In this document: positions 1,960 through 13,627 of the stretch, one piece after another | Position numbering within the stretch: position 1 is the first letter of the stretch | Layout of the letters: every line of letters starts with the position of its first letter | From: Candidatus Lokiarchaeum ossiferum | Lineage (GTDB): Archaea > Asgardarchaeota > Lokiarchaeia > Sigyniarchaeales > Promethearchaeaceae | Direction of reading: 5' to 3' | DNA length: 32,000 nucleotides | NCBI GenBank assembly: GCA_025839675.1 | Contig: CP104013.1 | Span: 5,310,001 to 5,342,000 of the forward strand | The notes under the pieces: generated by a model | What the model saw: the letters and a program-made list of their open reading frames with translations, nothing else | Databases searched by the model: none | Told to the model about the DNA's origin: nothing | Program-made: the position numbers and the translations under genes

Positions 1960-2376
1960 CTACTTTTGAAGAGTTGAGAAATATTCCGAAATTGTGGTAT
2001 TCCATCTTGATAAAATAGACTCAATTTTGGAAGTAAGTTCTTTTGAACTTAAAGGTGAATATATGTAGAGATAGCCTTTATTTGTTTTTGGTGATATATC
2101 TTCTCGATTATTCAAAGTACATCGTTCTTTGAATTCTGTCAAGGTCACCGATTTTCGCTCCACTAATCCCTTTTTCATTAAAACTTTAAGGTTTTTCTGG
2201 ATTATTGAACGTTCGCTATCCATAACGTCAACTAAGTTTAAGATACAAGTTCCACTATTTTCCATTTCAACGATATTCATGAAACATTCTAATTGCTTCT
2301 TGCTTAAATTAAAAACGTGGCGTATGATATTTCCAACAAGAATCGATTTATCTGGTAATATAGAAGAAACTGTCAT
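1960..2376 (-). CDS. winged-helix transcriptional regulator (TrmB/MarR-like)
   Basis: 138 aa. 'LSKKQLECFMNIVEMENSGTCILNLVDVMDSERSIIQKNLKVLMKKGLVERK' fits the TrmB/MarR wHTH pattern (helix-turn-helix followed by a ...GLVER wing). Confidence 0.55.
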   Translation of the reverse strand: MTVSSILPDKSILVGNIIRHVFNLSKKQLECFMNIVEMENSGTCILNLVDVMDSERSIIQKNLKVLMKKGLVERKSVTLTEFKERCTLNNREDISPKTNKGYLYIYSPLSSKELTSKIESILSRWNTTISEYFSTLQK

Positions 2377-2447: not shown

Positions 2448-2876
2448 TTATTTCGTGTTTTTTTTTATTACAGTGTCAATTATGCTCGCAAATTGAGCTT
2501 TTGGCGCCATTCCGACTTGTCGATGTACTAATTTCTTATTTTTGATAAATAATGTGGTTGGGATACCAGACACTTGGAACTGCTGTGCAATTTGTCCTAA
2601 ATCATCAACATTTAATTTTGCGAAGATTACACCTTTCGATTTAAATTCCTTTTGAAGTGCCTCAAAAGCTGGTGCAAATGCTTTACAAGGTCCACACCAA
2701 GCTGCCCAAAAATCTACAATTATTATATTATCAATATAATCGTTAACTATTTCATTAAAATGGTCAACTGAACTTATATTGACCACGCTATCAGGGAGTT
2801 GTTTTGTTGTCATCATTTCTATCATCTTTTTTCGTCGTATTAATTCTAACTCTTTGTCTTGTGACATTTTTTTCAC
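2448..2876 (-). CDS. trxA: thioredoxin
   Basis: 142 aa. Canonical active site 'WAAWCGPCK' and the downstream 'GIPT' cis-Pro loop. Has an N-terminal charged extension. Confidence 0.9.
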   Translation of the reverse strand: MKKMSQDKELELIRRKKMIEMMTTKQLPDSVVNISSVDHFNEIVNDYIDNIIIVDFWAAWCGPCKAFAPAFEALQKEFKSKGVIFAKLNVDDLGQIAQQFQVSGIPTTLFIKNKKLVHRQVGMAPKAQFASIIDTVIKKNTK

Positions 2877-3127
2877 GTAAGTATTATCGAATGGTTGTGC
2901 ATTTTTTTTTCCATTCTATATTAGTATAAACGATCCATATATTTAAAGGTTGTGCAAAAAAAAAACCTTACTTTCATATTTATTTCTATTTTGCCTAGAA
3001 TGGAGATTGTTTACATTGGAATCTTTTGACCCTTTTTTTCCGAATATTTCGAATGGAACAACTTAAATTAGTCAAATATTTAGATCAAATAGATCTATAT
3101 GGAATTTACCGACACAGGTAATTAACC

Positions 3128-3427
3128 ATGGAAATAACAGAAGAAGCATGTGAATTTGTTTCTGAGCAATCAAGCATAATGCAAGATCCGGTAATAGTCG
3201 TGTTTGAACGAACTTATCGAGGTTGATGCGGTGAAACAAAAGTAATTAATGTGGCTCCTGCTGATCGAGAAAAAGTGATAAGCCCAGAAAACTATATTGA
3301 GAAGAGTATCCCAGAGTGTAAATTTCCTATATTCTTTGAATCGAATTTGCACCATTTATATGATTCTGCCAAAATTGATGTTGTTGGATGGTCTGCTTTT
3401 AGAAGATTGGCATTGACCCAAAATTGA
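3128..3427 (+). CDS. HesB/IscA-like small protein with in-frame UGA (candidate selenocysteine at codon 33)
   Basis: Not in the ORF track. ATG 3128, in-frame TGA at 3224..3226, then 66 further open codons to TGA 3425..3427. Translation: MEITEEACEFVSEQSSIMQDPVIVVFERTYRG-U-CGETKVINVAPADREKVISPENYIEKSIPECKFPIFFESNLHHLYDSAKIDVVGWSAFRRLALTQN. This is collinear with IscA ('ITLSDSAAARV', '[20 protein letters not shown]', '[21 protein letters not shown]'), with U at the IscA 'GCSG' Cys. AGGT lies ~10 nt upstream of the ATG. Confidence 0.6.
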
Positions 3428-3435
3428 ACATCAAA

Positions 3436-3505
3436 TTCTTCAGAATGAAGTGTATCCATAAACTCTTGGGGATACATGGACACCTATTAGCGAATAGGGG
3501 AAGAA
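3436..3505 (+). promoter_or_regulatory. candidate SECIS element in the 3' UTR of the UGA-containing ORF
   Basis: TGTATCC (3451-3457) pairs with GGATACA (3470-3476), plus G3450-U3477. The 12-nt apical loop ATAAACTCTTGG carries AAA at 3460-3462. AUGA (3445-3448) lies opposite GGA (3478-3480), allowing tandem sheared G3447.A3480 / A3448.G3479. An outer TTCTTC (3436-3441) / GAAGAA (3500-3505) helix encloses it and a second hairpin, CCTATT-AGCG-AATAGG (3483-3498). Confidence 0.45.
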
Positions 3506-3517
3506 AATGGATCAATA

Positions 3518-3525
3518 TTTTTTTT
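3518..3525 (+). terminator. oligo-T tract (T8), likely archaeal terminator after the SECIS-like structure
   Basis: T8 run about 90 nt after the stop codon at 3427 and just past the folded region. Archaeal termination commonly uses oligo-T tracts. Confidence 0.35.
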
Positions 3526-3626
3526 CTAGATATCTTACCAATCTTTCTCATTCCACAGCATTTTTTAATAATTGGTGAAATCTATAAGATATGTCTCCCA
3601 ATTTTAAATTTGTTTTTAAAAATCGA

Positions 3627-4055
3627 CTATTTTAACCCTTTTCGTGCTTTTCTTTGAATTATTTTAATTAATCTTTTTGAGATGGGATCTTTAGCTACAA
3701 TATCAGCAAAATCTAAGGGATTGAAAAAGATCTTAAGAATTTTCAATTTGTTTTCTTCAAAAATAAGTGTCTCTGCTTGATGGGATCTAATTATCTGGCC
3801 ATTTTTCAATTTTACTATGGCGTAGAATTCCTCATAGAACACATTACCTTCGGAAATAATTACTACAGGTTCGAAATCAAGTTGTGGTGTCTTTTCAAAT
3901 AACCATTTGAGCCATTGTTGTGCACCCTCTTTTCCTTTCAATGGAACATTGAGGGTGGTTATTTCACAATTTTCATGGAAAAATTTTAATATACTCGGAA
4001 TATTGCGTTCAGTTAAAGCTTTATCGAAATTTTCTGCAATTGTTTTGATATCCAC
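3627..4055 (-). CDS. NTF2-like / SnoaL-like fold protein (tentative)
   Basis: 142 aa. Size and alpha+beta cone pattern ('...ALTERNIPSILKFFHENCEI...', then beta-rich 'GNVFYEEFYAIVKLKNGQIIRSHQAETLIFEENKL') resemble SnoaL/NTF2-like proteins. No catalytic motif recognised. Confidence 0.35.
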   Translation of the reverse strand: MDIKTIAENFDKALTERNIPSILKFFHENCEITTLNVPLKGKEGAQQWLKWLFEKTPQLDFEPVVIISEGNVFYEEFYAIVKLKNGQIIRSHQAETLIFEENKLKILKIFFNPLDFADIVAKDPISKRLIKIIQRKARKGLK

Positions 4056-4182: not shown

Positions 4183-5046
4183 GTGATTTCTGGACTGAAT
4201 TATATGACCCCCTCACCCCAAACAAAGGAAGAATGCCGCAAAATTTTCGAAAAAGGGCTTTCAATTTATAGTAAAAAGGACTATACTTCTGCATTACCTT
4301 ATTTTAAAAAAATGGACCATCGAGAATTTGAAGTTCTGAAATATTATCATCTCGGGTTAACTTACATTCAATTAGGTCAATTTGAAAATGGTTTAACTCA
4401 TTATCGAAAAATTCATGAGATTCCTCCTTCTGTTGAAGGAATAGAATACGATAGAATTATGTATAGTTTGTATATCAATATGGGATCAACTCTCCAAGTG
4501 CTCGCTCGAAGGAAACAAAAACCAGAATTATTTGAAGAGGCGATTACTTGCTATACTTATGCTTTACAAATCAAAGATTTTGATCCTCGAGTATGGAATA
4601 ATTTAGGAAACGCGTATCTTGATATGAATAAATTCCAAGATGCCATTAGATGTTTTAATAAAGCGATTAAATTAGATGATGAATTTCCTGAAGCCTACTA
4701 TTCTCTTTCCTTAGTTTACGAATCCATGAAGATGTATGAGAAAGCTGTGGAAGTATTAAAAAAAGGGTTGCGATGGAAGGCACGAAATAAAACATATTTG
4801 AATCGAATCGCGGGCTTAACCTTTGGGTTGGGAAATTTCCAAGAAGCTAAAGAATATGCTAAACGGGCAGTGGATGTAAAACCCGATGATCTTACTGCAA
4901 ATAAAAATCTCTCATTAATTTTATATAATCTTGGTGAATATGAAGAAGCATTCACATATTATCAGAAATTGTTATTGATTAATCCCGAATTCAAAGAGCC
5001 AGAAGTCGAAGGAATTTTTGAGGATCTTAAAAAAAAGATTTCATAA
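4183..5046 (+). CDS. TPR repeat protein
   Basis: 287 aa with repeated 34-aa TPR signatures (e.g. 'WNNLGNAYLDMNKFQDAIRCFNKAIKLDDEFPEAYYSLSLVYESMKMYEKAVEVLKKGL'). The track start is GTG 4183. An in-frame ATG at 4204 is an equally plausible start. Confidence 0.8.
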   Translation: MISGLNYMTPSPQTKEECRKIFEKGLSIYSKKDYTSALPYFKKMDHREFEVLKYYHLGLTYIQLGQFENGLTHYRKIHEIPPSVEGIEYDRIMYSLYINMGSTLQVLARRKQKPELFEEAITCYTYALQIKDFDPRVWNNLGNAYLDMNKFQDAIRCFNKAIKLDDEFPEAYYSLSLVYESMKMYEKAVEVLKKGLRWKARNKTYLNRIAGLTFGLGNFQEAKEYAKRAVDVKPDDLTANKNLSLILYNLGEYEEAFTYYQKLLLINPEFKEPEVEGIFEDLKKKIS

Positions 5047-12115: not shown

Positions 12116-13417
12116 TTAAGGTGTGTTTCGATTCATAACTCGGGGATAAGCAATTGTATCTCGAATGTGGTCTAAATTGCATACCCAGCGCATCATACGT
12201 TCGATTCCCATTCCAAACCCGGAGTGTTGGACACTTCCATATCGTCGGAGATCGAGATACCATTCATAATCGGCAATTTTAGATCCATCTCGTTTTAAAT
12301 TGTCAATAATCACATTAATATCTTCTTCCCGTTGACTTGATCCAATTAATTCTCCATAACCTTCGGGTGCTAAGAGATCATTCGCTTCTGCATATTTTCC
12401 ATCTAAAGTTTTCATGTAGAAGGCCTTAATTTTCCGTGGGAAATGGGTGACATGGACAGGTGATTTCAGATCTTCGGTTAATGCCCGTTCATGATGGGTT
12501 CCAAAATCTTCTCCCCATGGAATTTCGACTCCTTTCTTGTTTATAATATCAATGGCTTCATCATAATGGATTCGATCAAAAGGGCCTTCAATATTTAACA
12601 AATCTTGAGGATCTCTACCGAGAGCTTTCAATGCTTTTGGTTCATCTTGAGCAACTTTATGGATCATTGCACATACTAAACCATCTTCAAATTTTATTAT
12701 TCCATTTAAATCCAAAAACGCCGCTTCTGCTTCTAAATGCCAATATTCTGCAAGATGTCGGTTTGTTCTTGACTTTTCTGCTCGAAAACTTGGAGTTAAG
12801 GAGTAGACATTTTGATGGGCAAAGATTAATGTCTCTAAATATAATTGAGCAGATTGGGATAGAAACGCCTTTTTCCCGAAATAATTCAACTCAAAAAGGG
12901 TGCTTCCTCCTTCACATGAACTTCCTGTAATGATAGGGGGGGTCATTTCTACATATCCTTGTTGATCGAAGTATTCTCGAGCACCCTGCAATAATTTTGC
13001 TTTTACTCGGAAACTATGAGTTAATTTTTGACTTCGAACCCAAAGATGACGGTAATCTAAAAGAAAGGAATCACTCTGATCTTTTTGAATTGGAAATGTT
13101 TCTGCCATCTGAATAATAGTAAAGTTTTCAATTTGCATTTCATAACCATTTGGAGCGCGATTATCCTCTTTAATATTCCCTTCAATAATTACTGAGGATT
13201 CATATTTTACCTCACATAACATATTGAATAATTCTTCACTAAGTTGGTCTTTTTTTCCGGTGCATTGCAGTGTCTCAGTACCATCTCGTAGCACAATAAA
13301 GGCCATTTTTTTACTGTTACGCTGACGATACACCCATCCACGGATTTTGACTCTTTTTCCCACGAAATCGGGAGAAAGAACCTCTTGAATATAGTGATAA
13401 TCTTTTTCCATTTTCAT
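12116..13417 (-). CDS. asnS: asparaginyl-tRNA synthetase (class IIb)
   Basis: Class II motifs 'FRAEKSRTNRHLAEYWHLEAEAAF' (AsnRS-like) and 'GFGMGIERMMRWV', with an OB-fold N-domain 'VKIRGWVYRQR'. The track ORF extends to 13474, but alignment with archaeal AsnRS N-termini favours Met at 13417 (MKMEKDY) or 13411. Confidence 0.85.
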   Translation of the reverse strand: MKMEKDYHYIQEVLSPDFVGKRVKIRGWVYRQRNSKKMAFIVLRDGTETLQCTGKKDQLSEELFNMLCEVKYESSVIIEGNIKEDNRAPNGYEMQIENFTIIQMAETFPIQKDQSDSFLLDYRHLWVRSQKLTHSFRVKAKLLQGAREYFDQQGYVEMTPPIITGSSCEGGSTLFELNYFGKKAFLSQSAQLYLETLIFAHQNVYSLTPSFRAEKSRTNRHLAEYWHLEAEAAFLDLNGIIKFEDGLVCAMIHKVAQDEPKALKALGRDPQDLLNIEGPFDRIHYDEAIDIINKKGVEIPWGEDFGTHHERALTEDLKSPVHVTHFPRKIKAFYMKTLDGKYAEANDLLAPEGYGELIGSSQREEDINVIIDNLKRDGSKIADYEWYLDLRRYGSVQHSGFGMGIERMMRWVCNLDHIRDTIAYPRVMNRNTP

Positions 13418-13627
13418 CACGCTTAGTCCACATAGTTTAAACTCAAATTTTAATTTAATGATTGCTTTCCTCAAAGCCGAAGTAATAAATTGCCCTAAGA
13501 TATTTTAAAAGACTGATCAATATGATATTGAACAAAAAGTTGAAAAATTTATAGTTCCCCCTGATTTCGATTTACCTTCTACCCACTGATCTAACCCCTC
13601 AAATGGATTGGAAGGGACTTGATTCCT

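Follow-up and report, generated by a model that had tools for sequence, protein, structure and literature searches.

A probable Asgard-type selenocysteine insertion element downstream of a CC/Se-motif gene in Candidatus Lokiarchaeum ossiferum

We describe an RNA element in a 32,000-nucleotide stretch of the genome of Candidatus Lokiarchaeum ossiferum (contig CP104013.1, positions 5,310,001 to 5,342,000 of the forward strand; hereinafter the window, to which all coordinates refer). The element, at 3436-3505, lies in the 3' untranslated region (UTR) of a gene at 3128-3427 that is interrupted by a single in-frame TGA, and is very probably a functional selenocysteine (Sec) insertion sequence (SECIS) of the Asgard type, the eukaryote-like type I form also known as lokiSECIS. 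This assignment draws on comparative sequence analysis, namely the recurrence of the element behind other TGA-containing homologues, the covariation of its stem, and its mutual recognition by covariance models with elements behind the unrelated HdrA-VhuD genes.

A covarying stem with an invariant core past the stop codons of TGA-containing genes

The element begins 9 nucleotides (nt) past the stop codon. A preliminary description of this DNA, made from the letters alone, had seen there a perfect 7-bp helix (3451-3457 / 3470-3476) extended by a G-U pair, a 12-nt loop carrying AAA, and the flanking motifs AUGA and GGA, and its coordinates proved exact throughout (Table 1). The G-U pair is G3450.U3477, the loop occupies 3458-3469 with AAA at 3460-3462, and AUGA and GGA are located at 3445-3448 and 3478-3480. 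We observed the same architecture downstream of nine other distinct TGA-containing homologues, in which G-N-AUGA is followed by a 9-position stem, a loop of 10-14 nt with AAA placed exactly 11 nt past AUGA, and finally GAC. These elements start 4 to 51 nt past their respective stop codons, and their stem sequences are unrelated to each other. Positions G1, A3, U4, G5 and A6 of the GAAUGA hexamer are invariant in alignments A6, A9 and A10, of which A9 is a MAFFT alignment of 8 family elements that was checked by eye and not fitted to structure, and A10 was likewise checked; the MAFFT alignments A7 and A8 were excluded with their stems misaligned. The AAA of the loop is invariant in all aligned elements, the G, A and C of GAC are so in all Sec-linked elements, and all 11 distinct Sec-linked elements conform to G-N-AUGA...GAC. 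The bases of the tandem sheared G.A/A.G pairs suggested earlier for the core are thus invariant, and it is from this invariance that we infer the pairing itself.

The stem is sustained by compensatory change. In A9, 87.5% of the cells pair, as against 60.3% in shuffled alignments (0 of 500 as high), 8 of the 9 stem pairs display double-sided changes, and sliding the partner strand by 1-3 columns reduces pairing to 22-51%. The result is unchanged with the VhuD elements described below added and the window removed. RNAalifold recovers the main stem unaided, with compensatory changes in 7 of the 7 pairs that it predicts. Even the comparison with the orthologous locus L001 alone reveals the exchanges U-A to C-G at 3453/3474, G.U to A-U at 3450/3477 and A.G to U.G at 3449/3478. 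The ninth, core-proximal pair is non-standard (A.G, A.A or U.U) in 6 of the 8 sequences, which is the look of the 3b.3n position of a kink-turn (K-turn).

The segment 3433-3508 (76 nt) has identical minimum free energy (MFE) and centroid structures, both of which are the proposed three-way junction of outer helix, main stem and second hairpin (-18.4 kcal/mol, z = -2.95, matched by 1 of 200 shuffles). On folding thermodynamics alone, this junction appears moderately supported. A second hairpin, which had been noticed at 3483-3498, is present in this structure and also begins 1-3 nt past GA in all nine Sec-linked elements tested; the combined shuffle p-value of 0.007 covers ten entries, of which the tenth, from the locus L060 discussed below, was extracted at a wrong offset and is unreliable, and overall the support for this hairpin is moderate. 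Its L001 counterpart shows a U-A to A-U swap. Strands able to form an outer helix are seen in homologues as GUAUC/GAUAU, CCCUA/UAGGG, AAUCUC/GAGAUU, AAGAC/GUCUU, CCGCGUU/AACGCGG and CCGAA/UUCGG. Considered together, the outer helix and the second hairpin are weakly to moderately supported by these sequence comparisons.

Beyond the element, the run of eight T residues is the sole run of at least four T between 3428 and 3560, and runs of 5-9 T occur at about the same distance past the element in L001, L003, L004, L005, L007 and L008. As in the earlier reading, the run is a probable terminator; a scan for sigma-70 promoters and intrinsic terminators is uninformative for an archaeon. The sequence gives no sign of an early end of the transcript, as there is no oligo-T signal from the stop codon to the element.

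Table 1. Coordinates of the Sec insertion candidate, its gene and their parts in the window
Feature	Position	Strand	Basis or remark
99-codon ORF (open reading frame), CC/Se-motif (IscA/HesB-fold) selenoprotein candidate	3128..3427, stop included	+	translation, NF041239 match, codon comparison, AlphaFold2 model
In-frame TGA, codon 33, proposed Sec codon; motif R-G-U-C-G, read as R-G-(TGA)-C-G-E-T-K	3224..3226	+	kept in homologues
Terminal stop TGA	3425..3427	+	17 nt upstream of AUGA core
Outer (lower) helix, 5' strand UUCUUC	3436..3441	+	pairs with 3500-3505 in MFE of 3433-3508
GAAUGA: invariant G3443, AAU bulge, G3447 and A3448 of proposed tandem G.A pairs (5' strand of K-turn-like core)	3443..3448	+	
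AUGA	3445..3448	+	17 nt past stop
Main SECIS stem (helix II), 5' strand AGUGUAUCC	3449..3457	+	pairs with 3470-3478: A.G, G.U, 7 Watson-Crick
Apical loop AUAAACUCUUGG, 12 nt, AAA at 3460-3462, last base G	3458..3469	+	
Main SECIS stem, 3' strand GGAUACAUG	3470..3478	+	covariation
GAC: G3479 and A3480 of proposed tandem G.A pairs, invariant C3481 (can pair with G3443)	3479..3481	+	
Second hairpin CCUAUU-AGCG-AAUAGG (3483-3488 / 3493-3498, loop AGCG)	3483..3498	+	MFE
Outer helix, 3' strand GAAGAA	3500..3505	+	MFE of 3433-3508
T8 run, probable archaeal transcription terminator	3518..3525	+	

The in-frame TGA and the encoded protein

The gene is read in frame +2 from its ATG to its terminal TGA (MEITEEACEF...RG(TGA)CGETKV...LTQN-stop); the L001 orthologue has TAA at the place of the terminal stop. 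An exhaustive profile-free protein search recovered 15 relatives of its product, many of which are deposited with tryptophan (W) at the column of codon 33, and this W proved to be TGA in 10 of the 10 distinct genes that could be read as DNA (L010 and L012 being further copies). The TGA and the reading frame around it are retained in homologues down to about 31% identity. Cysteine (Cys) occupies the Sec column in three homologues, P0005, P0008 and P0016 (Cys-Cys). The motif in homologues is [GS]-U-C-G or C-C-G, so that the R-G-U-C-G of the window protein presents the adjacent U-C/C-C pair typical of the CC/Se family, and the alignment indicates that the column is a classical Sec/Cys pair. A search for related loci with a 4-sequence family alignment returned one metagenome locus, L005, and a contig scan with a 2-sequence family alignment gave 33 pattern matches, none of which was confirmed.

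Compared with L001 (79% nucleotide identity), codons 1-32 exhibit 11 synonymous and 5 non-synonymous differences, with 14 of the 19 base changes in third positions, and codons 34-99 exhibit 24 synonymous and 11 non-synonymous codon differences. This synonymous excess on both sides of the TGA indicates that both halves are translated in one frame, and the pattern of codon differences is that of purifying selection on both halves of the ORF. TGA is also the ordinary stop of 4 of the 27 long ORFs in the window, which argues against a global reassignment of this codon.

The GenBank annotation of L. ossiferum takes a different view, dividing the gene (L002:2878-3177) into hypothetical proteins of 32 aa (WKT22_04817) and 58 aa and leaving the selenoprotein unannotated. 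The 58-aa C-terminal ORF of the window, which would begin at GTG, is 98% identical to the L. ossiferum protein on CP163304.1, and between this second sequence of the locus (L002) and the window there are 8 differences in 600 positions, all of them outside 3436-3505. The two annotated proteins and the available GTG start are what one might expect if the locus were a relic, that is, a decaying pseudogene or a pair of small ORFs followed by a hairpin that is no longer functional. Against this stand the retention of the TGA and frame in distant homologues, the purifying selection on both halves, the compensatory nature of the stem changes, and the structural model presented below, in which the full-length protein forms one compact domain; hence, we consider a relic very unlikely and favor an intact gene with a Sec codon.

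The window protein matches the NCBIfam model NF041239 (CC/Se motif family (seleno)protein) with 25 bits (E 1.5e-5), below the cut-off of 40 bits, and 13 of the 16 family members match it, with a best E of 3.8e-9. On these scores it is a distant relative of the NF041239 family. Precomputed matches to PF28096 are available for P0010, P0012 and P0015 (those of P0010 and P0015 being marked weak), only 1 of the 16 members has a sequence match to PF01521, and the window protein does not match TIGR01911 (HesB-like selenoprotein). An AlphaFold2 (AF2) model was built from the orthologue P0001, which shares 84% identity with the window protein, as the first row of the family alignment. It displays a single compact domain with a predicted local distance difference test (pLDDT) value of 94.5, and its top 8 fold matches in the PDB are all of the IscA/SufA type (prob 1.00, template modelling (TM) scores of 0.52-0.61, E from 8e-4 to 0.045). 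With the CC/Se family (NF041239, PF28096) and the HesB-like proteins (TIGR01911) the window family thus shares a length of about 100 aa, a beta-strand followed by U-C or C-C, and a predicted IscA/SufA/HesB-like fold. The CC/Se family as described is bacterial (Moorella), and a bacterial-type SECIS within the coding sequence is expected there; the putative Sec signal of the window gene, in contrast, lies in the 3' UTR and not inside the coding sequence.

Class membership, conflicting observations and alternatives

The published lokiSECIS comprises AUGA, a 9-bp stem, an 11-nt loop with its first five bases A-rich and its last base G, and GA, all near the stop codon (PMC4989117). The final G of the loop is usually preceded by A in elements of this type, and the same form has been named Asgard eSECIS-like type I (Huang et al. 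2024, PMC11227280). The window element likewise lies in the 3' UTR shortly past the stop codon of a UGA-interrupted gene, has AUGA directly 5' and GA directly 3' of a covarying 9-position stem (8 standard pairs plus the core-proximal A.G), and is accompanied by a candidate lower helix. Its loop agrees in part, being A-rich at the start (4 of the first 5 bases) and ending in G, but it is 12 nt long and has G before the last base; the loops of L007 and of the VhuD elements are 11 nt long and end in AG. The gene's own stop is a nearby UGA, as is the case in many Loki selenoprotein genes (Mariotti et al. 2016, PMC4989117).

Covariance models strengthen this likeness in both directions. Model R2, built from five distant family elements and two VhuD elements with the window and L001 left out, finds 3443-3482 with 39.7 bits (E 5e-7) as its sole significant match on both strands of the 32-kb window. 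The runner-up at 12489-12530 (+), with ATGA, 8 of 9 pairs and GA, scores 12.4 bits (E 0.84), lies antisense within an aminoacyl-tRNA synthetase ORF (12116-13474, minus strand), and was set aside as a chance match. Conversely, model R1, built from CC/Se-family elements only, matches an element directly past VhuD in an HdrA-VhuD contig from the marine-sediment metagenome LCGC14 with 39.9 bits (E 2e-8) and a second VhuD group with 33.4 bits, these being its only matches in those loci. The VhuD elements directly follow the stop codon as UAG-A-AUGA-CCUAUUCAA-AAAAAUUUUAG-UUGAAUAGU-GAC, with the GAAUGA hexamer also present, and after them come a short hairpin, ACC-UUGCAAU-GGU, and the strand UUCGG, the complement of a CCGAA further upstream, so that by sequence their three-part layout is the same as that of the window element. 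The expectation that similar structures occur in the lineage is thereby borne out twice, by the nine TGA-containing homologues and by the Lokiarchaeota-type HdrA-VhuD contigs, and both the leave-out model and the double-sided changes agree with the preliminary description. Membership of the window element in the published Asgard SECIS class, type I, is hence supported by this cross-recognition and the shared sequence features.

With the eukaryotic SECIS of form 1 (Rfam SECIS_1), whose K-turn-like core is bound by SBP2, the element shares the AUGA...GA quartet core, unpaired loop adenines 11 nt from the core, a 3' UTR location and, by analogy, a proposed long-range effect on an upstream UGA; it differs in a shorter upper stem, a position much nearer the stop, and the lack of a match to the Rfam SECIS models. 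The SECIS of the euryarchaea (Methanococcus/Methanopyrus) is likewise an archaeal 3' UTR hairpin for Sec insertion, the function we propose here, and that of methanogen VhuD also has AUGA and GAC/AAC (PMC4989117). The window element, however, is without the GAA/A asymmetric bulge, the GC-rich 10-bp lower stem and the 3-bp G-C upper stem of this form, its stem (3449-3457 / 3470-3478) being uninterrupted and AU-rich. The earlier recognition of a eukaryote-like Loki form distinct from the GAA_A form of Methanococcus fits the published lokiSECIS description (PMC4989117).

The element also resembles the known K-turns. A K-turn, such as the L7Ae-bound box C/D K-turn, may also occur in three-way variants termed k-junctions. 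The likeness to K-turns lies in the potential G-C closing pair, the 3-nt bulge, the proposed tandem G.A/A.G pairs and an A.G at 3b.3n as in Kt-7, and that to k-junctions would lie in the third helix inserted on the non-bulged strand. Unlike a box C/D RNA, the element has neither the box C (RUGAUGA) and box D (CUGA) pair nor a guide region, and a reading as C/D sRNA was dismissed, the Rfam snoRNA and miRNA matches being noise (E 3-8).

Several observations weigh against the assignment as a SECIS. There is no Rfam match at the gathering threshold in the whole window and no match to a SECIS family at E up to 10 in 3000-3700; for Loki, SECIS covariance models of archaeal, eukaryotic and bacterial type were likewise tried and reported to yield no significant matches (PMC4989117). 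The loop is 12 nt long and not 11, with G and not A as its penultimate base; further differences from the published form are that it opens with AUAAA and not AAAAA, and that its first stem position is A.G and not a standard pair, the VhuD elements similarly having C.U or U.G there. The prediction that the fold is favored holds for 3433-3508, but z shrinks to -1.89 once the T-run is taken in (3428-3530): the core stem and the second hairpin persist and the outer helix is replaced by other pairings. The support for this TTCTTC/GAAGAA helix, which had been part of the preliminary description, is weak in other respects too, as short AU-rich helices arise easily, runs average 5.3 bp with the own partner and 4.1 bp with a mismatched one, and shuffling sequence by sequence gives no significance; since the shuffles fail, the helix, despite its presence in the MFE structure of the shorter segment, is retained only as plausible. 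Further, the bare motif (ATGA, a stem of 9 positions of which 8 or more pair, 8-15 nt of loop, and GA or AA) is at chance frequency in the window, with 4 occurrences for an expectation of 3.1 +/- 1.9. The Sec machinery was not found in the window, where a tRNA scan gave 0 matches, and the rest of the genome was not searched. Finally, one Cys-form gene retains the hairpin and one Asgard selenoprotein subfamily carries a differently organised 3' UTR element, as detailed below.

The motif count and the modest z of the longer segment would be in keeping with a fortuitous AT-rich fold or a common terminator hairpin in which AUGA and GA are present by coincidence. Nevertheless, the site directly after a UGA-containing ORF, the covariation in independent lineages and the leave-out score of R2 place the element above chance, and the GAAUGA, AAA and GAC columns are invariant. 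We regard a chance hairpin as most improbable, and the covariation, the R1 match at VhuD and the R2 match in the window effectively refute it.

The Cys-form gene raises a different alternative. L060 (protein P0005), the closest Cys-form homologue, is syntenic with the window with respect to a TPR gene and has TGC for TGA. Used as a negative control in which no SECIS was expected, it turned out to possess a hairpin at L060:430-469 with a perfect 9-bp stem and an ideal A-rich loop (AAAAACUUAAG), attached to a broken core that reads GAAUUGA...GAU as opposed to GAAUGA...GAC, with a bulge of 4 nt in place of 3. It is the sole GAU element and scores 23.2 bits. The hairpin is thus not strictly tied to the UGA codon, and L060 is the single finding in favor of a function independent of Sec. 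One may ask if this conserved 3' UTR structure serves another purpose than Sec insertion, for instance as an L7Ae-bound K-turn acting in mRNA stability or 3'-end formation, with only a secondary link to UGA. Such a role would be consistent with the generic K-turn consensus of the core and with the T-run that always follows the element, which makes 3'-end formation conceivable. However, archaeal termination requires only oligo-T, the same class of element lies past HdrA-VhuD, unrelated proteins whose common feature is an in-frame UGA, and L060 is disrupted exactly at the invariant core bases, as fits decay after the loss of Sec. We accordingly judge a role outside Sec insertion to be unlikely and retain the SECIS assignment, under which the L060 hairpin is probably a fossil or decaying SECIS left by a Sec-to-Cys replacement. 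Such a Cys locus with a damaged core constitutes a small natural experiment linking the GAAUGA...GAC core to UGA recoding.

The PrxL loci, which had been considered as known lokiSECIS comparators, gave 0 pattern matches and 0 model matches and were replaced in this capacity by the HdrA-VhuD loci. As the PrxL element is unseen by our models, the AUGA-9-loop-9-GA form is not universal among Asgard selenoprotein genes. This subfamily, found in 35 loci from Asgard metagenome-assembled genomes (L014-L048, motif I-N-U-P-F-C-R-W-H), has a strongly conserved element of about 75 nt located roughly 5-95 nt past the stop. It shows an outer helix GAUUUGG/CCAAAUC, an inner stem of 10-12 bp with compensatory changes, and an apical loop whose 3' side carries AUGA and whose 5' side, in lineages of greater divergence, carries GAAAA; a near-invariant unpaired UUAGCCA comes next. 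The PrxL element may be a distinct Asgard SECIS form.

Proposed mechanism, genomic context and implications

We infer the following mode of action. The mRNA would span the gene and the element and end at the T8 run. The base of the stem-loop would adopt a K-turn-like core consisting of G3443-C3481, the AAU bulge, the sheared pairs G3447.A3480 and A3448.G3479 and then A3449.G3478, above which eight standard pairs would lead to the A-rich loop, with its AAA fixed at 11 nt from AUGA; the lower helix and the small second hairpin would probably close a three-way junction. The folded element would recruit the Sec-specific elongation factor with its Sec-tRNA(Sec), either directly or through a K-turn-binding protein, and the UGA of codon 33, 218 nt upstream, would then be read as selenocysteine. 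The terminal UGA, just 17 nt upstream, would be too close to be recoded and would hence end translation, an idea that derives from PMC4989117. The product would be a small protein of the IscA/HesB fold, carrying U-C at the site of the C-C of its homologues.

The neighborhood of the gene offers further observations. A palindrome, AGATC-AAATA-GATCT, occupies 3082-3096, some 30 nt before the start codon, and recurs without change at L001:237-251; it could be the binding site of a regulator. A gene for a TrmB-like regulator is located near it (1960-2376, minus strand). A thioredoxin gene with a WCGPC motif (2448-2876, minus strand; Pfam Thioredoxin, E 3.5e-26) is divergent from the selenoprotein gene across an intergenic region of about 250 bp, an arrangement that hints at a common redox context. 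On the other side, a convergent gene for a SnoaL-like protein (3627-4055, minus strand) has no counterpart in L001 and L060; in these orthologous loci the TPR gene (4183-5046 in the window) comes directly next, the SECIS and T-run staying with the selenoprotein gene across this indel. Further away, two tandem paralogues of about 300 aa (9-923 and 996-1901, both on the minus strand) code for Arf/Roc/Gtr1-like small GTPases typical of Asgard genomes.

The RNA class itself is already published; the present instance appears to be new. The CC/Se family (IscA fold, U-C motif) is not among the archaeal families named in the 2024 Asgard survey (PMC11227280) or in the text consulted of a 2026 review, and PMC4989117 does not list it for Asgard either; the review counts 11 archaeal selenoprotein families, and in that text the CC/Se family (NF041239) appears without an archaeal mark and is not named for archaea. 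Our literature search retrieved no paper on L. ossiferum selenoproteins. The Asgard cases known until now come from metagenome-assembled genomes only and comprise five widespread and two rare selenoprotein families. The instance described here would add one more family and exposes the GenBank split of its gene into two hypothetical ORFs, and the models R1 and R2 are usable for listing every SECIS in the L. ossiferum genome.

L. ossiferum belongs to the small number of Asgard archaea that have been cultured. Consequently, the predicted presence of Sec at residue 33 of this 11-kDa protein is directly testable, and herein lies the main value of the window instance. On a more speculative note, which we advance as a doubtful though worthwhile proposal, the gene could be the first archaeal member of the CC/Se-motif (IscA/HesB-fold) family, in a cultured Asgard archaeon, and the Asgard SECIS might be more than a simple hairpin, namely a three-way k-junction formed by a lower helix, a K-turn core with a G...C closing pair, an A-loop stem and an accessory hairpin often with a GCAA/GCGA-like loop, that is common to the CC/Se family and the HdrA-VhuD genes. 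SBP2 was not detected in Lokiarchaeota (PMC4989117). If true, a module shared in this manner by unrelated selenoprotein genes would point to a dedicated Asgard SECIS-binding factor.

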